From Candidatus Baldrarchaeum yapensis (GTDB lineage: Archaea; Asgardarchaeota; Baldrarchaeia; Baldrarchaeales; Baldrarchaeaceae), in assembly GCA_016840465.1 (NCBI GenBank), contig JAEOSH010000014.1, positions 1 to 32,000 of the forward strand: a stretch of DNA of 32,000 nt, in the 5' to 3' direction. Positions within the stretch are counted from its first letter, which is position 1. Each line of letters opens with the position of its first letter. The notes below the pieces were generated by a model. The model was not told the origin of the DNA. It made no database searches and saw only the letters and a list, made by a program, of their open reading frames with translations. This document shows positions 3,113 to 15,609 of this stretch, in pieces. Both the position numbers and the translations under genes were made by a program.

Positions 3113-4324
3113 ATGGAAGTGACGTTTGAGGAAAAGAGGGCACGGGACCTCATACACCCGATAGACCGCACTTGGGAGATCTGGAGGTACTGCCCCCATA
3201 GGTTTGCGGCGAACATATACTTGGGGTGCTCCCACTCCTGTGCCTATTGCTTCGCCCGATCCATGAGGGTTGACTACAACACCAGGATAATAGTAAGGGT
3301 TAACGCACCGGAACTCGCGCGCAGGGAACTCTCACGGATGAAGGGGAGGATCCAACCGGTGGACTTGGGGTCGGCATCCGACCCCTATCAGCCAGCGGAG
3401 CGAAAGTATATGCTTACGAGGAGAGTGCTTGAGGTCTTCAACGAAATGAACGCACCGTGTTTCATAGTGACAAAATCGGACCTCGTGCTTAGGGATGTAG
3501 ACCTGATATCCGAAATGCACGAAAAGGGGCTATGCACCGTCGCAGTGACGATCACAACGCTGAACAGGGGGATAAAGAGGTTAATCGAGCCGTACTCTTC
3601 CACAACGGACGCAAGACTTAAGGCAATAGAGGAACTGAAAGACGCCGGTGTGAAGGTTCCGGTTAAAATCCAGCCCATACTTCCATTCTTGACCGACGAC
3701 GAGGACGAACTGAGAGAACTGGTGGACGCTGTTGCTGATGCGGGGGCCGTACACGTCACATCGATGGTCCTTAAGGTCTCCGATACCGTGTGGAGCAACA
3801 TGAGATCTATCTTTGAGCGGAAGTTTCCCGACCTCCTACCAAAGTATGAGGACCTTTACTTCAAGAGAGGGGAGGAGGATCTTTCGGGGTATAGAAGGGC
3901 GCCTGCCAATTACAGAAGGCGAGTTCTCGAAATCGTGGCCGACCAGTGTAAAAAGCGGGGATTGACATTTGGAACATGCAAGGAGGGATTCTTTGACCTG
4001 CACACGGACGTGAGGTGTAGTGGCATTCACCTGAAGGGAAGATACGTTCCGACCATTGAGAACTACTGGAGGGAACTCACATTAAGGGGCGTGCTGAGGA
4101 TCGAGGACGCGGAGGAAATTGCAAAGGGATATAAGGTTCACAAGAAATACCTCCAAGAATTAAAGCGGATATGGATGAGCGGAAAATTGTTCTCGGGAGT
4201 CCCCGGCGTTCTTGTGGAGAGAGCAGATGGGGAAGTCGTTTATAGGTTGTGTGAATCAGCCCTCCGTGGCTCGTCATCCCAACAGGTCTGTGCTGGTGGC
4301 AGTCATCATCTTCAGCAGGTATGA
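3113..4324 (+). CDS. Radical SAM protein, spore-photoproduct-lyase-like family
   Basis: CxxxCxxC motif (NIYLGCSHSCAYCFAR), GSASDPYQPAE, IVTKSDLVLRD, IQPILP. ATG 3113 preceded by GGTG; ORF is open from GTG 3089. Confidence 0.88.
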   Translation: MEVTFEEKRARDLIHPIDRTWEIWRYCPHRFAANIYLGCSHSCAYCFARSMRVDYNTRIIVRVNAPELARRELSRMKGRIQPVDLGSASDPYQPAERKYMLTRRVLEVFNEMNAPCFIVTKSDLVLRDVDLISEMHEKGLCTVAVTITTLNRGIKRLIEPYSSTTDARLKAIEELKDAGVKVPVKIQPILPFLTDDEDELRELVDAVADAGAVHVTSMVLKVSDTVWSNMRSIFERKFPDLLPKYEDLYFKRGEEDLSGYRRAPANYRRRVLEIVADQCKKRGLTFGTCKEGFFDLHTDVRCSGIHLKGRYVPTIENYWRELTLRGVLRIEDAEEIAKGYKVHKKYLQELKRIWMSGKLFSGVPGVLVERADGEVVYRLCESALRGSSSQQVCAGGSHHLQQV

Positions 4325-6785: not shown

Positions 6786-8576
6786 TCACTCGGCAATAAC
6801 ATTTATCCTTCTAAACTTCACGGTATCGATGAGCCCCTTGTCCGTGATCCTCAACTCCGGTAAAACGGAAAGTGCCAAGAGCGACATCGTCATGAACGGT
6901 GAAATTAACTCGCAACCCAGAGCCCGCCACGCCCTCTCCAGACCCTCCACCTCCTCACAAACCTCTTCCAGACTCTTATCTGACATGAGTCCGGCGATCG
7001 GCAATTCCACCAGTCCCAGAACCTCCTGATTTCGTACGGCGATCATTCCACCCCCCGCCTCTATCAACTTACGCGCGGCGAACGCCATGTCTTTCTCGTT
7101 CATGCCAACCACGAGGAGGTTGTGACTATCATGCGCAACCGTTGACGCAACAGCCCCCTCCTTAAAACCAAACCCTTTAACAAATCCAACACCGATATTC
7201 CCGGTCGCCCTGTGCCTCTCTATCACCGCAACCCTCGCAACGTCCTTCTCAACACTCGGCATGACAACGCCGTTGACCACGGGAAGCTCTTCTATCAGGT
7301 GCTTGGTGACGACCTTCCCCTCCACCACGCCTATGACGTGAACCTTCACCTTCTCCCTATCCGGAGAAGTCCTAACTAGGAAGTCCTCCGGCTCGGGAAC
7401 CCTTTTCACTCTTATCGTCTTCTTTGCATCCTCCGGGTACTCCATCTTCTCTATCTTGACAACTAACTTTCCATCCCTGGCAACGACCTCGCCGTCCGCA
7501 ATTACGGTATTCACCTTGACCTTCGTCAAACTGTCAAGTATCAGCATGTCCGCAAACCTTCCCGGTGCAATTCCCCCCACATCTCTCTCAACGCCGAAAT
7601 GCTCCGCAGTGTTCAGTGTCGCCATCTGGATCGCCCTCACCGGATCCACTCCCTCCTCTATCGCTCTCCTCACGACAAAGTCCATGTGACCCTCCCTAAC
7701 TATATCCTCCGGGTGCCTGTCATCCGTGACGAGAATAAGCCTCCTGCTGTCGATCTTGCCCTCCGTGTAGCACTTTATCACTTCCGCAAGATCCCTCCAC
7801 GCCGACCCCTCCCTTATCATTGCGTACATCCCCAACCTCACCCTCTGGATTCCGTCTATCTTCCTAGTAGACTCGTGACACGAAGTTATCCCAGCGGCGG
7901 CATACGCCGCAAGTTGCTCATCTAGGATCCCATCCGAGTGTCCCTCCACAACCTTGCCCGCCCTCAGCGTTGCATTTATCTCCCCGAAGACCTTCTCATC
8001 TCCTGCTAGAACCCCAGGGTAGTTCATCATCTCCCCCAGTGCAACAACCTCCTCCCACTTCATCATCTCCTCCACGTCCTTTGGCCCTATCTCCGCGCCC
8101 GCCGTTTCAAACTCCGGAAAAGATGCAGGGACGCATGAAGGCACACATACGAAGACCTTCAGCGGAACCCTCTTTGCCTCCTCTATCATGAGTTTTATGC
8201 CGTAAACCCCCAAAACGTTGGCTATCTCGTGAGGGTCTATGAAAACTCCGGTCGTCCCCCTCGGTAAAACCCCACGCGCAAACTCGGCCACCGTGACCAT
8301 GCTACTCTCTATGTGAACGTGACCATCCAGAAAACCGGGGCACAGATATCTCCCCTCCGCGTCTATCACCTTCGTTTTATCCCCGATCGTGTGGTCCGCT
8401 TTGCCAACTAACGCTATCCGATCGCCCTTCACTGCAACATCTATTCCCTCTAGGATCTCCCCACTGTAGACGTTAACAAGAGTCGCATTCTTGACAACAA
8501 GATCGGCTTTCTCTTTCCCGAGTGCGGTAAATACCAGTAGCCTGTTAACTTCCTCCAAGCGGCTCCGCCTTCGCAC
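6786..8576 (-). CDS. ade: Adenine deaminase (amidohydrolase superfamily)
   Basis: PGFLDGHVHIESS, DPHEIANVLG, ALGEMMNYPG, CHES, REGSAW, VTDDRHP, STVAHDSHNL, LELPIAGLMS-like tail. GTG 8576 follows GGGGTGGT; ORF is open to 8627. Confidence 0.95.
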   Translation of the reverse strand: MRRRSRLEEVNRLLVFTALGKEKADLVVKNATLVNVYSGEILEGIDVAVKGDRIALVGKADHTIGDKTKVIDAEGRYLCPGFLDGHVHIESSMVTVAEFARGVLPRGTTGVFIDPHEIANVLGVYGIKLMIEEAKRVPLKVFVCVPSCVPASFPEFETAGAEIGPKDVEEMMKWEEVVALGEMMNYPGVLAGDEKVFGEINATLRAGKVVEGHSDGILDEQLAAYAAAGITSCHESTRKIDGIQRVRLGMYAMIREGSAWRDLAEVIKCYTEGKIDSRRLILVTDDRHPEDIVREGHMDFVVRRAIEEGVDPVRAIQMATLNTAEHFGVERDVGGIAPGRFADMLILDSLTKVKVNTVIADGEVVARDGKLVVKIEKMEYPEDAKKTIRVKRVPEPEDFLVRTSPDREKVKVHVIGVVEGKVVTKHLIEELPVVNGVVMPSVEKDVARVAVIERHRATGNIGVGFVKGFGFKEGAVASTVAHDSHNLLVVGMNEKDMAFAARKLIEAGGGMIAVRNQEVLGLVELPIAGLMSDKSLEEVCEEVEGLERAWRALGCELISPFMTMSLLALSVLPELRITDKGLIDTVKFRRINVIAE

Positions 8577-8832
8577 ATTACCACCCCAATGCAGTAGAGG
8601 TGCACTAAAAGAGGCCGCATCATGCATAAGAATCCCCAGTAATACTAATTAACTGTTCCGACACCACCTCAACGCTTCCACACATATGTGATTACTTTAG
8701 GCATATGATTCCCATATGATAAACACATTTGTGGGAAATTACGTGACCGCGAGCACCCATCATCCACCTAGATTCGCTGTAAACGGAAAACAAAGAACCC
8801 TCAGCGGAGAAAAATCCTCAGAAAAATGGATG

Positions 8833-9309
8833 TCAATCCAGAAGGGGATCAACTTGTACCCTTACCGGAATTCCAGCGCGCACACTCTCGGTAACCGTGC
8901 AGTACTTCTCAAAGATACCAATGCACCTCTCAAGCTTGTGCCTATATTTCTCCTTAATCCTCGGTCTTAGAGTGACGTTCACCTCCTTCACCCTAAGAAA
9001 GCCCTCCTCGTTCCGTGCAACCGTGCCCGAAACCTCTGCACTTATGTCCTCGATCTCAACCCGATGTATCATGAGACAGTAGGCGAGGGAAGCAATCAGA
9101 CAACCGGCAATCGACGCCGCAAGGAGCCTTGTCGCGTTTACTCCTGCTCCTTCACTTAGCGGATGATGGGGCGGCTCATCCATGTGCAGTTCGTGCCCGG
9201 TGTCAAACTCAACCTTAAATTTCAGCTTCCCGGCCCACTTTATCGAAAAGGTGAAAACGCCTCCCTCATACCGATGCCGGATCCGTCCAGATGATCCGTC
9301 CGCTCGCAT
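8833..9309 (-). CDS. OsmC/Ohr-like family protein
   Basis: DEPP..GEGAGVNATRLLAASIAGCLIASL and KYCTVTES contain the two conserved Cys. ATG 9309 is the likely start; ORF is open to 9372. Confidence 0.88.
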   Translation of the reverse strand: MRADGSSGRIRHRYEGGVFTFSIKWAGKLKFKVEFDTGHELHMDEPPHHPLSEGAGVNATRLLAASIAGCLIASLAYCLMIHRVEIEDISAEVSGTVARNEEGFLRVKEVNVTLRPRIKEKYRHKLERCIGIFEKYCTVTESVRAGIPVRVQVDPLLD

Positions 9310-11954: not shown

Positions 11955-12782
11955 TCAGTCGTTGGTGGGCTTTGAGGGGAATCTTATTTCAGCGGCGGGC
12001 ATATGGTACATCATTCCCTCTTCGTACTTGCCCTCGATCACTATTCCCTTGCTCTTAAGTTTTTTTAGTATGGCGATGGCCTCGTCCACCGTTTTGAACA
12101 TGTGGGGCAATCTTATCATGATGTCGGTCGGCGTGAGCCTCCCTCCCATTTCATAGAAGAGGCGAACAACCTCCAGCTCCTTGGTTGAGAGTTCCAGCCC
12201 AGGGGAGACGTAGAGATTATCCCCTATCTTCTTCAAATAGCCTCGCTTCACGAGTTTCTTTAGCACGAGGTTTATGTCGTCAGATGTCACCAGTTTCCCG
12301 TCTATTTCACCGATGTCAACCAGTATCCTTCCAGGGGAGATGACATTCCCATACCTGTACGCCAGCTCCAAGATCCTCTGTTCAAGGAGGGTGTAGAATC
12401 GCTTCTTGAGCCTTCTACCCTCCAATATCCTGCGCAGAAGCCCCATTTTCTTACTATTCTCCTCTGTGGACACCTGCACTTTGGGCATTTCCTTCGCTTC
12501 CTTCTCCAATTTTACCTCTTCGCGCCTCTCCACTTCAGTAGGCTTTTCTTCCTCACTCTCTCTCATTCTCTCTTCACTTGTGCCCTCCTTTGGTATTTGG
12601 AACGCTGGCGGCTGTATTAGCGGTGGTAAAACGTGAGGAATTGGCGGTTGTTGCATATAAGGCCATCTATGGTGTTGCCATCTGAACCATAGAGGTGGTG
12701 GCAACCATCGAGGCGGTGGGAAAGCGCGCCTGCGCGTCTTTCCTCTACGGAACCTAAACCTGCGCCACATGGGGTTCACCAT
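11955..12782 (-). CDS. Tandem winged-helix protein resembling ESCRT-II subunits (EAP30/Vps22-Vps36-like), with an Arg/Pro/Trp-rich N-terminus and a Glu/Lys-rich linker
   Basis: 275 aa from ATG 12782. WH1: FYTLLEQRILEL..GNVIS..VTSDDINLVLKKLVKRG. WH2: ELSTKELEVVRL..GGRLTPTDI..DEAIAILKKLKSKG..YHMP. The CDS is secure; the ESCRT-II assignment comes from by-eye alignment with recalled Vps22/Vps25 sequences. Confidence 0.6.
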   Translation of the reverse strand: MVNPMWRRFRFRRGKTRRRAFPPPRWLPPPLWFRWQHHRWPYMQQPPIPHVLPPLIQPPAFQIPKEGTSEERMRESEEEKPTEVERREEVKLEKEAKEMPKVQVSTEENSKKMGLLRRILEGRRLKKRFYTLLEQRILELAYRYGNVISPGRILVDIGEIDGKLVTSDDINLVLKKLVKRGYLKKIGDNLYVSPGLELSTKELEVVRLFYEMGGRLTPTDIMIRLPHMFKTVDEAIAILKKLKSKGIVIEGKYEEGMMYHMPAAEIRFPSKPTND

Positions 12783-12806
12783 TTTTGAGATATTGCACAA
12801 AATATC

Positions 12807-12821
12807 TTTATAAGTTTTCGA
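12807..12821 (-). promoter_or_regulatory. BRE/TATA promoter for a probably leaderless transcript of the tandem-WH gene
   Basis: Minus strand reads cGAAAAc-TTATAAA, centred about 28 nt upstream of ATG 12782. No RBS before the ATG. Confidence 0.6.
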
Positions 12822-13050
12822 TTACGTGATGATGAGGGTCATGCATCTACTGACATATTACGTATTTTGGTACAAAAAATTGTATATGCGAATTATTCGG
12901 TTGCATCTTTGTGAATTTTCGTAAAATGGATGTTTTGAGGCGTTTGCATCCGGTCACTTGACAAACGTGAGAAACGTTGAGAACAATCACGCAACTTCCG
13001 ATAAATTTGGAGATTCCCTGTATTCATGCTTTACAGATCCTTCGGATGTG

Positions 13051-13145
13051 GCTCGGGGGTTGCCCCGAAAGGGGGCGAGCCCGGAAAGGGTGATGTGCCC
13101 CAAGGCGGATGTTTGCTCACTAATGCGGGCATCCGCTGAACCCCT
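13051..13145 (+). ncRNA. Candidate structured non-coding RNA, family not recognised
   Basis: 62/95 GC versus 67/180 GC in 12841-13020. Closing stem GGGGGTT/AACCCCT, two GC hairpins with GAAA-containing loops, and a 12-bp stem (13105-13116/13125-13136) with three U-G pairs that indicate the + strand. Confidence 0.55.
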
Positions 13146-13190
13146 CAATTCAGATAATGCATGAGTAATCTCGCAGTCTGGGATCCGAAA

Positions 13191-13553
13191 TTAAAGTTTA
13201 GTTTCTTCCTCTTCGCCCTCCTCCTCTTTCAAGAAGTACCTAACTTCTCTTCTGATCCTTTTCTTCGTGACCTTACCCATTCTGAAGAGTTCATTAAGAA
13301 TTCCGGAAGCGTGGCTTCGAGAGATTTGAAGCCTCTGTGCGAGTTCCCTTGCGGTTACGCCCTCAGGAATGTTCTTTAACTCCTTCAGCGCCAGTGAGAG
13401 TAGGGACTCGACGTCAGCCCTTCCTCCACGGATTACCATCAACTCCTCTCTTCTCTCTATCCTTTCCCTCATTAGGCTACACAGTTCCTCCAGCGTGGAT
13501 TTCAACTCCTCCAAGATCCTCTCTATCCGCTCAAGCCTTTCCTCGACGGACAT
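13191..13553 (-). CDS. Coiled-coil plus winged-helix DNA-binding protein (putative transcriptional regulator)
   Basis: Heptad-rich N-terminus (VEERLERIERILEELKSTLEEL), wHTH GVTARELAQRLQISRSHASGILNELFRMGKVTKKRIRREVRYFL, acidic tail. ATG 13553 follows GGTGA; other ATGs at 13559 and 13565. Confidence 0.85.
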   Translation of the reverse strand: MSVEERLERIERILEELKSTLEELCSLMRERIERREELMVIRGGRADVESLLSLALKELKNIPEGVTARELAQRLQISRSHASGILNELFRMGKVTKKRIRREVRYFLKEEEGEEEETKL

Positions 13554-13617
13554 CGCCATCACCATTTCTTCGACACCGACAACATCAAATAGAAGGACAT
13601 CCTGAGGGATATAAAAT

Positions 13618-13891: not shown

Positions 13892-14131
13892 TTACGTGCA
13901 TATTAGCGTTTCAGTGTGCTCTATCCCGTCGATTCGCCTGATCGCCGTGACCACCTTGTCAAGCTCCTGCATGCTCTGCACCTTTATTTTCACGATCATG
14001 TCCCAGGAGCCGTAGGTGACCCTCACCTCCTCTACGCCCCTCATGCTCTTTATTTTCTCTCTGACGTCGTGCTCCATCCCTATCGACACTATGACCAGCA
14101 CGTACGCCTCTATTTCCTCACTCAAAACCAT
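13892..14131 (-). CDS. Stand-alone Lrp/AsnC ligand-binding (RAM) domain protein
   Basis: About 79 aa. AYVLVIV..GMEHDVREKI..GVEEVRVTYGSWDMIVKIKVQSMQELDKVV..IRRIDGIEHTETLI. No HTH domain. Confidence 0.92.
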   Translation of the reverse strand: MVLSEEIEAYVLVIVSIGMEHDVREKIKSMRGVEEVRVTYGSWDMIVKIKVQSMQELDKVVTAIRRIDGIEHTETLICT

Positions 14132-14403
14132 ACCCCCATATTGCAGTCCGACCATCAATTAGTACCTTATAATTAAAAACTTCCGGATGACGGCGCCTTT
14201 CGAGCATCTCCATTCGCGTTGCGGCAGTTCATGCTGAAGGTATGAGAATTGCAGTGCATGGGCCTCGGAGAACTGAAGCCGAAGCCACGTGATCCCTCAG
14301 CCTCTCCGGCCTCTAAAAAGATAAAGGGTCTTCCGATAAGTAAAGGTATAAATGTCTCCCCCTTTAATGGCACAGACCCGCGTGGAAACAAGGGAGTAGG
14401 AAT

Positions 14404-15609
14404 ATGAAGTACGACGACGTTCTGCTCAGAGTGATGAGGCGGGAAGAAAGTAGGGAGATCGAGGCAAGGGAGAGAGCGAGGAAAATCGAGGAGTTTGCGG
14501 AGAGTTTGGGACTCAACGGGTTTGTTAGGGAAATGCGGAAAAATCGCACGATCCTCACAACCTACGTACAGGATTACGATGTTCAGAGGAGGCTCTACGC
14601 CTCATCTGCGCGCGACGCTAGGGGTTCAAAGGAGGGGGATGAGGAGAATCTCGCTCTCTTCAGGGATGTGCTGATGCTCCTGATGGGAGAGCAGGAACAA
14701 ATTCACCCGGAGGCCGCGGAGAGGTTCAGATGGCGCCCTCCTGAGTTCTTCATAAGAAGGATGTCGTACGACGATGCCTACGTGGTAGTGATGAGGGACG
14801 AGGACTCCCCCTTCTACATATTCTCGGTGCTTCGCGCGGGTGAAACCCTCGCAACCGGGGTTCTTGATCAGGCAGATGCGTACCTGATCTTCTGGAACAG
14901 GGTTCCGCCGGAGGTCGTAATCGCATCCGCATACATCCATGTGAGGTCGCTGGTGACCGAATTGCTGGATGCAATGCCACGGGAACTTCTCACGGCCACG
15001 GGGATAAGGTCGATAGAGGTCCGTGAACACATGAAGTTTCCATACCTGAGAGTTCACTTCTCCGATGGGAAGAGCGTTGATATTGGAATAAACCTAGAGG
15101 ATCTATCCTTACTGCTGAATGGAATGAGAAGAAGCGTGGCGCAGGAAATAGTATGTCGAGCGGTGACGGAGCGAGGACATGTGGAGGTTAAGGGACAAAA
15201 CTATAGGGTGGAATTCAAAAGGCGGGATCATGGCTGGCTTGTTCTCCTAACGATGCCGGGAAGGTCCGTAGAGGGAGTCTTGAACTGTAAATTCATAGAC
15301 GGGGATCTGCTGTTCTCCGCAAGTAGGGGGCTGGAGGACCTCGCGTTAGACCTAGTAGATCTACTACTAAGGGTGGGGGGAGTGATTCAGGCAACCGACG
15401 GCACCGAAATAGAGGTGGACATTTCCGCACATGTACCCTGGTGCTTCATCAGGTTGGACATCGGCGGGATGATGCTCGAATACAAGGCCGTGGCATCGGG
15501 TTTTGGGAGAAAGAACGTAATGAACGTGCTGAAAGAAATACTGCTCGGAAACATCACAAGATCTTCCATCCCGAAGATACTCTCGAGCCGCGGTTTTTCA
15601 AGAACCTGA
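14404..15609 (+). CDS. Hypothetical protein (401 aa)
   Basis: Long ORF with RBS-like GGGAGTAGG and upstream TATAAA near 14346-14351. Charged helical N-terminus followed by alternating beta/alpha segments. No family recognised. Confidence 0.8.
   Translation: MKYDDVLLRVMRREESREIEARERARKIEEFAESLGLNGFVREMRKNRTILTTYVQDYDVQRRLYASSARDARGSKEGDEENLALFRDVLMLLMGEQEQIHPEAAERFRWRPPEFFIRRMSYDDAYVVVMRDEDSPFYIFSVLRAGETLATGVLDQADAYLIFWNRVPPEVVIASAYIHVRSLVTELLDAMPRELLTATGIRSIEVREHMKFPYLRVHFSDGKSVDIGINLEDLSLLLNGMRRSVAQEIVCRAVTERGHVEVKGQNYRVEFKRRDHGWLVLLTMPGRSVEGVLNCKFIDGDLLFSASRGLEDLALDLVDLLLRVGGVIQATDGTEIEVDISAHVPWCFIRLDIGGMMLEYKAVASGFGRKNVMNVLKEILLGNITRSSIPKILSSRGFSRT

Follow-up and report, generated by a model that had tools for sequence, protein, structure and literature searches.

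A 32,000-nucleotide stretch of DNA from the Asgard archaeon Candidatus Baldrarchaeum yapensis (contig JAEOSH010000014.1, positions 1 to 32,000; hereafter the window) carries on its minus strand an open reading frame (ORF), 11955..12800, whose product we interpret, with moderate confidence, as a divergent paralog of Vps22 (EAP30/SNF8) from a narrow Baldrarchaeota-type lineage. The pair of PPxW motifs near its N-terminus would be a species-specific Pro/Trp elaboration of a conserved, basic, Trp-rich tail that likely binds membranes. What is new here is an Asgard paralog from the endosomal-sorting complex ESCRT-II with a new N-terminal device, which is rare and uncharacterised. The ORF comprises 281 codons from TTG 12800, the start from which residues are numbered below, and its translation includes RRRAFPPPRWLPPPLWFRWQHHRW. 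The locus has the following features:

11955..12770, minus strand: likeliest coding sequence, 271 amino acids, from ATG 12770 (M11) to the stop codon at 11955-11957.
12648..12770, minus strand: polybasic Trp-rich tail (residues 11-51), defined by composition, with no acidic residues and all of the Trp of the protein.
12687..12722, minus strand: paired PPxW motif FPPPRWLPPPLW (residues 27-38), made of the hexapeptides PPPRWL and PPPLWF.
12465..12647, minus strand: linker, Pro-rich and then Glu/Lys-rich (residues 52-112), predicted to be disordered (AlphaFold2 predicted local distance difference test (pLDDT) score <50) and unconserved in sequence in orthologs.
11958..12464, minus strand: basic helix including KKMGLLRRILEGRRLKK, followed by predicted Vps22/EAP30-like tandem winged-helix domains (residues 113-281; AlphaFold2 pLDDT 70-90).
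12776..12780, minus strand: Shine-Dalgarno-like GGTGA, with a 5-nt spacer to ATG 12770.
12806..12820, minus strand: putative archaeal promoter, read from sequence, with a purine-rich CGAAAA resembling a B recognition element (BRE) and then TATA-like TTATAAAG.

The Vps22 relationship was apparent in the C-terminal part of the protein. Using hhalign with target alignments assembled from related genomes, we found that the C-terminal alignment of the family matched 30 Asgard Vps22 sequences at 96.5% (E 8.2e-10) over 140 columns, covering the helix and both winged-helix (WH) domains. Control comparisons gave 17% (E 0.0014) for 31 Asgard Vps25 sequences and 0.6% (E 0.092) for 20 tandem winged helix-turn-helix (wHTH) regulators of the HVO_0163 type, and on the same scale canonical Vps22 against Vps25 gave 6.4% (E 0.0058). 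AlphaFold2 (numbering from M7) modelled residues 1-106 as disordered and residues 107-250 as a long helix with two WH domains at pLDDT 70-90. The top Foldseek matches in the PDB were human EAP30 (2zme_A and 3cuq_A, E 6.5e-5, 25% identity), with yeast Vps22 (1u5t_A, TM 0.35/0.44) also among the matches. In VIA-align, 3cuq_A covered both domains (Z 9.6, 155 residues) and the top rows were single generic WH domains, and the nearest structural cluster in the ESM Atlas was SNF8, followed by archaeal tandem-wHTH regulators, as sub-threshold leads at 0.75. The alignment to Vps22 begins at template column 108-111, and the modelled disordered residues 1-106 are unrelated to it in sequence. Given the hhalign contrast between Vps22 and the Vps25 and tandem-wHTH controls, we assign the C-terminal module (~160 residues) to the Vps22 lineage: judged by profiles and predicted structure, it is specifically derived from that lineage, in divergent form. 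The first-pass annotation of this DNA had placed Vps22-like tandem WH domains on the same chain as the motif, a proposal borne out by hhalign, Foldseek and the controls.

The divergence is considerable. BLASTP against the canonical Vps22 of this genome returned nothing significant, so that the relation is visible solely at the profile level, and a scan of the whole genome with PF04157 (cut-off 26.8 bits) did not list ORF 11955..12800 at E up to 1. A tblastn search tied the protein to the canonical Vps22 gene of another genome, G028 (E 8e-4). A protein word-index search recovered only the protein itself, and the best match in a PDB sequence search, a designed ankyrin (E 0.025), was judged to be noise.

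The N-terminal tail is conserved chiefly as chemistry. Residues 7-51 have a net charge of +12 with 11% Trp and 18% Pro, and across the first 45 residues of this protein and both orthologs the charge is +9 to +12, with 0-2% acidic, 22-29% aromatic and 11-13% Trp residues. The best 19-residue window on the Wimley-White interfacial scale reaches -5.9 kcal/mol here and -5.9 to -6.8 kcal/mol across the three sequences, and none of the three proteins has a Trp outside the tail. We infer membrane binding because an abundance of Arg and Trp/Tyr without acidic residues is the tail's one conserved feature, because the N-terminal basic helix of eukaryotic EAP30 binds phosphoinositides (PMC12203935), and because EAP30-like paralogs in sister genomes bear two hydrophobic, transmembrane (TM)-like segments at their N-termini. 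The first-pass annotation had suggested that the polybasic N-terminus could bind acidic membranes or nucleic acid; its basic aromatic character proved to be conserved, and comparison favours binding to one or the other as a prediction. Searched alone, the N-terminal part had no usable match in the Atlas feature search. Comparably basic, Trp-rich windows occur genome-wide in seven long frames, most of them improbable genes.

Composition look-alikes of the tail are found in near-identical Arg/Trp-rich frames of 105-137 amino acids (PPRRRRGCRTWRW...) on contigs C1 (+82359), C86 (-75) and C67 (-224) of this genome (G000); these three frames probably come from reading a repeated element out of frame.

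Sister Asgard genomes encode EAP30-like proteins of ~285 amino acids with two N-terminal TM-like segments, located at L008 952-1818 (G003), at L010 1066-1917 (G004) and in a 290-aa minus-strand frame of L006 (G008). These proteins match EAP30 weakly, at 19.9 bits, this protein at E 1e-3 to 6e-7 and canonical Vps22 at E 1e-7, and on sequence grounds they look like a membrane-anchored family of Vps22 paralogs. A search of this genome with a sister-genome paralog as the query did not find a TM-anchored member.

In the mechanism that we propose, the tail of ~45 residues would lie at an anionic membrane interface, with Arg on lipid head groups and Trp at the interface itself. The tail would tether the WH module via the variable, disordered linker of ~60 residues, and the tethered module could then engage a protein partner, perhaps Vps25 (via WH2) or Vps22. 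What is in the orthologs a short Trp-rich predicted helix (PW-x-LWW) would in this species have become a proline-broken version.

In the translation of the ORF, FPPPRWLPPPLW (residues 27-38) corresponds exactly to 12722..12687, and retranslation of the minus strand confirmed the coordinates and letters first given for it. In the 2.27-Mb genome we scanned every stop-to-stop frame no shorter than 100 aa (4,979 frames, 1.04 million residues) and found a single occurrence of PP.W..PP.W, in ORF 11955..12800; the looser PP.[WYF]..PP.[WYF] likewise occurred once, at the same site. Among 200,000 composition shuffles, a fraction of 2.4e-4 (45 N-terminal residues) or 5.2e-4 (72 residues) regenerated the pair. 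Five further public assemblies of Candidatus Baldrarchaeum yapensis have the motif region unchanged, and the sole N-terminal coding difference among same-species assemblies is a synonymous TTT to TTC change at 12756.

Beyond the species the pair disappears. The first-pass annotation had set conservation of PPxW-xx-PPxW in homologues beforehand as a refuting test, and the three orthologous sequences carry QPWALWW or NPWMLWW at this position, with no PPxW pair; PPPRW-LPPP-LWF here corresponds to QPW-A-LWW and NPW-M-LWW there, in a comparison for which only three lineages were available. Three elements could be traced by eye in all of the tails: a basic stretch behind the initiator Met, P(x)W with LW[WF] next to it, and [YH][YH]RWxY. 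In the AlphaFold model of one ortholog (P0011), the equivalent segment is a short helix (residues 12-22, pLDDT ~50-63), which the proline-rich segment of this species cannot form. The Pro-rich stretch after the motif (QQPPIPHVLPPLIQPP) and the acidic linker are likewise specific to this species. As far as the sequences compared show it, the PPxW pair is genuine and, among those lineages, confined to Candidatus Baldrarchaeum yapensis.

The pair is probably a hexapeptide duplication. An 18-nt tandem repeat at 12685-12719 underlies it (1.9 copies, 88% matches, TRF score 56), and a single six-codon duplication, giving PPPRWL and then PPPLWF, could yield the pair without selection for a pair. We rejected the 18-nt repeat as proof of a recent duplication: amino-acid identity forces 11/15 identical bases.

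Besides ATG 12770 the frame offers starts at TTG 12800, ATG 12782, ATG 12656 (M49) and ATG 12566 (M79), and public gene calls use four different ones (M7, M11, M49 and M79). Relative to ATG 12770, GGTGA stands at -10 and the TATA-like box at -43. Over 432 well-defined starts in the genome, the peak for Shine-Dalgarno-like words falls at -14 to -10 and a small peak for TATA-like ones near -44, and we favor ATG 12770 because its signals fit these positions; the promoter assignment at 12806..12820 is itself an inference from the letters. In the ortholog of the Candidatus Baldrarchaeota genome G004, a promoter-like TTTTATAT lies ~36 nt upstream of the MRRRGY start, with a purine-rich GGAAGGA in between. 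The first 42 codons of the two ortholog lineages align without gaps and conserve 5/5 Trp; five unchanged TGG codons at 29% nucleotide divergence would arise by chance at ~0.006, a post hoc estimate. The ratio of nonsynonymous to synonymous change (pN/pS) is 0.54 over the ortholog N-terminal codons, whereas the first WH block has 0.15. Stops interrupt the +1 frame, which also lacks a start, and no alternative frame is open over the N-terminal region. A search of public RNA runs found none that contains the locus. We conclude that the motif-bearing N-terminus is probably translated, with M11 as the start. The first-pass annotation had worried that the true start might lie downstream of the motif; the concern was fair, as the public calls disagree, but the BRE/TATA sequence, GGTGA and the orthologs favor a start upstream of it.

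Several observations tell against a membrane-binding Vps22 paralog. Pfam gave no match at E up to 10 for the protein or its orthologs, the EAP30 model included, and because that model misses the protein it is profile-profile and fold comparison that supports the Vps22 link. No gene neighborhood is conserved among the three lineages, and so context offers no hint of function. An Arg/aromatic-rich tail could equally bind nucleic acid, and a Vps25-like pattern match, described below, keeps a docking role alive. Residues 7-48 are encoded with unusual codons: the log-likelihood is -0.25 per codon, where the 1st percentile of real genes stands at +0.08, and over the N-terminal 40 codons it is -0.25 to -0.34 in the true frame and -0.18 to +0.16 in the +1 frame. 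This usage accounts for the disagreement among the gene calls, 4/6 of which begin downstream of the motif at M49 or M79. These calls and the odd codon usage would suit a protein translated from M49 or M79, with the Arg/Trp-rich stretch a fortuitously open untranslated leader outside it, a scenario that we regard as very improbable. A GGAGG is present upstream of M79, but it stands 22 nt from that ATG, beyond the genome's -14 to -10 peak, whereas the signals of ATG 12770 fit. Against a leader there is also an open frame with the same chemistry and all five Trp in both ortholog lineages with a promoter-like box directly upstream, the lack of any other open frame across the region, and the fact that its lone polymorphism is synonymous. 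The main alternative to membrane binding is nucleic-acid binding, in which the tail and basic helix would bind DNA or RNA, with the tandem WH domains serving as a winged-helix regulator and not in membrane remodelling. Taken singly, WH domains of the model match Z-alpha domains, many wHTH regulators and the WH of Rpa2 (Z 9-11), and the nearest Atlas models include archaeal tandem-wHTH regulators. The tail and WH region here have net charges of +12 and +8, and the gene is solitary, with its own putative promoter, beside small regulators (an AsnC-type and a coiled-coil wHTH protein). We nonetheless judge this alternative unlikely: the tandem-wHTH profile matched at 0.6% against 96.5% for Vps22, the WH regions of the orthologs are near neutral (+1 and +2), and high Trp with zero acidic residues is generally more typical of membrane-interface peptides than of arginine-rich motifs.

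The first-pass annotation itself had read PPxW-xx-PPxW as a Vps25-type docking peptide on the same polypeptide as its receptor, which would permit homo-oligomerisation into an ESCRT-II-like scaffold from one gene. On such a model the target would be a Vps22-type WH2, either in another copy of the protein or in canonical Vps22, and the protein would self-assemble or enter ESCRT-II. Yeast Vps25 has two PPxY motifs, PRM-I and PRM-II, separated by two residues, with Phe10 just before PRM-II and Tyr14 at its end; Phe10 lines the Vps22 or Vps36 pocket, and Gln17 and Arg83 also contribute (PMC1579232). The spacing that the annotation had given for yeast agrees with that account and equals the spacing here. 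In this genome the docking region of Vps25, FALPEWVEYPWMYIRP, reads FALPEW-VEY-PWMY-IRP, and the consensus over 31 Asgard Vps25 sequences is lPxW-vxx-PWM[YF]-xxP....SW. Trp is the last residue of Asgard motif I and of the motif here alike, so the PPxW form is more apt than yeast PPxY suggests. The pattern P.W[VILM]..P..[YFW] matches only Vps25, ORF 11955..12800 and one unlikely frame in the genome, the orthologs retain a PWM/PWA element reminiscent of PRM-II and score 3.2-4.4 bits on a docking-region profile hidden Markov model (shuffle p ~0.025-0.05, uncorrected), and the receptor-type domain is, by the comparisons above, truly Vps22-like. That pattern was defined after both sequences had been seen and arises in 0.4-0.6% of composition shuffles, making it a lead and not a test. 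On the same profile the N-terminus of this protein scores -9.7 bits, with 1,956 of 2,000 shuffles scoring at least as well (~98%), and the pair is missing from all orthologous sequences. Ahead of motif II stands Pro, where yeast has an aromatic that fills the pocket (Phe10) and the Vps25 of this genome has Tyr; the sequence continues as FRWQHH, and the xxP...SW continuation of Asgard Vps25 is absent. The motif of Vps25 abuts WH1, which contributes to binding (Arg83), whereas here ~80 predicted-disordered residues lie between motif and WH domains. We give a docking peptide little credence, and the one-gene ESCRT-II-like scaffold built on it is left unsupported by the lack of conservation, the Pro before motif II, the distance from the WH domains and a profile score below that of shuffles.

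The family is very small, consisting of this species and two or three Baldrarchaeota-type relatives. An exhaustive phmmer search of 1.84 billion representatives gave just four proteins at E <=1e-3, one of them the query; the others were P0008 (an ortholog of 265 aa), the fragment P0009 and a distantly related WH-repeat protein. A profile search added P0011, which is an ortholog of 254 aa from sediment of the Guaymas type. Of 61 related genomes, G004, of the same order, had the sole clear ortholog, in a gene split over two contig ends. A look-up of a 233-aa variant, P0005, gave no contig. EAP30-like genes more broadly exceed the Pfam cut-off in 71/81 genomes of the phylum, often in multiple copies, in agreement with the diversity of Asgard ESCRT-II paralogs already described by Makarova et al. 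(PMC10936438).

This genome has its canonical ESCRT cluster on contig C44 (L001, L011) and not on the contig of the motif. There, genes for a UEV-type protein, a Vps28-like protein, a small helical protein and Vps22 (8181-8843; 89 bits) share one strand, with Vps25 (ORF around 3458-3769; 38 bits) ~4.5 kb away. At the window locus we found no linkage to ESCRT-I, ESCRT-III or Vps4 genes, and the ortholog contexts also differ: the neighbors are an acetyl-CoA synthetase-type ligase, small regulators and purine genes in the window, nitroreductase and UbiA genes for P0011, and an upstream hydrogenase-type large subunit for the G004 ortholog. P0011 (L013 1187-3053) is flanked on one side by a full-length nitroreductase gene (169 aa) and on the other by a nitroreductase-like fragment of 69 aa, an arrangement that could reflect insertion into or beside a duplicated gene.

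Directly upstream of the paralog gene in the window, 13191-13565 on the minus strand encodes a 124-aa coiled-coil protein with a single WH domain, which gave sub-threshold matches to MarR/TrmB-type HTH domains and to the last WH of EAP30 (E 1e-3). Relatives carry its homologs on different contigs, and we therefore rejected a conserved partnership. Upstream of the paralog gene, an AT-rich spacer of 390 nt contains a GC-rich island at 13040-13155 that folds better as the plus strand, with two long hairpins (-53.5 kcal/mol, z -2.55), than as the minus strand (z -1.0). The island had no Rfam match at gathering thresholds, and Rfam and tRNA scans of the window returned nothing relevant; it may be a small RNA transcribed opposite both flanking genes. 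Further along, 14404-15609 on the plus strand is a 401-aa ORF without a Pfam family and with a noise-level coiled-coil match, adjoining a protein with an AsnC-type ligand-binding domain (13892-14158, minus strand).

Eukaryotic ESCRT-II attaches to membranes through the basic helix of EAP30 and the GLUE domain of Vps36. Asgard ESCRT-II is the closest prokaryotic model for the origin of eukaryotic ESCRT by tandem winged-helix duplication. A Vps22 paralog whose pairing region has been swapped for a Trp-rich tail, together with TM-anchored versions in sister genomes, suggests repeated trials of membrane attachment in this lineage. Were membrane binding by the tail combined with a WH module that recognizes Vps25 or Vps22, the protein would be a simple analogue of Vps36. 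Hatano et al. reported that Odinarchaeota Vps22 did not homodimerise and may need an undiscovered partner (PMC9192718), which makes a Vps36-like role for such paralogs worth testing. We hold it improbable that either the Pro/Trp segment mimics the docking peptide of the genome's own Vps25 (LPEW-VEY-PWMY) or the paralog is the missing Vps36-like, membrane-binding partner of Vps22, in a lineage whose Vps22 may fail to homodimerise. A docking mimic, if real, would let the membrane-tethered paralog take the place of Vps25 on canonical Vps22 or form chains through its own WH2, yielding a built-in regulator or a one-gene ESCRT-II-like scaffold.

Among known systems, the best match in both profile and fold is Vps22/EAP30/SNF8 (PF04157; Asgard cog.002769), with the same helix and two winged-helix domains and, in eukaryotic EAP30, a basic N-terminal part as in this protein. 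Canonical Vps22 has in addition an N-terminal helical/steadiness-box region for Vps22-Vps36 or Vps22-Vps22 pairing, which this protein lacks and in place of which stand the disordered Trp-rich tail and linker. The gene also differs from canonical Vps22 in lying outside the ESCRT cluster, in being limited to few Baldrarchaeota-type genomes and in escaping recognition by the Pfam EAP30 model.

The TM-anchored EAP30-like paralogs (L006, L008 and L010) share the Vps22-like C-terminal WH domains and, in the N-terminus, what may be a device for membrane association, but they use two hydrophobic segments of ~20 residues and not a basic Trp-rich tail. With PRM-I and PRM-II of Vps25 the protein shares two Pro-aromatic motifs six residues apart, the first ending in Trp as in Asgard Vps25; it does not have the aromatic before motif II, the xxP...SW continuation, the adjacency to WH1, the conservation in orthologs or the profile similarity. 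Finally, indolicidin and tritrpticin offer a physico-chemical analogy, drawn from general knowledge and not from homology: they are likewise rich in Arg, Trp and Pro, without acidic residues and with favorable interfacial energy. Those peptides are secreted, whereas the segment described here is the N-terminus of an intracellular 271-aa protein whose binding to membranes is a prediction.

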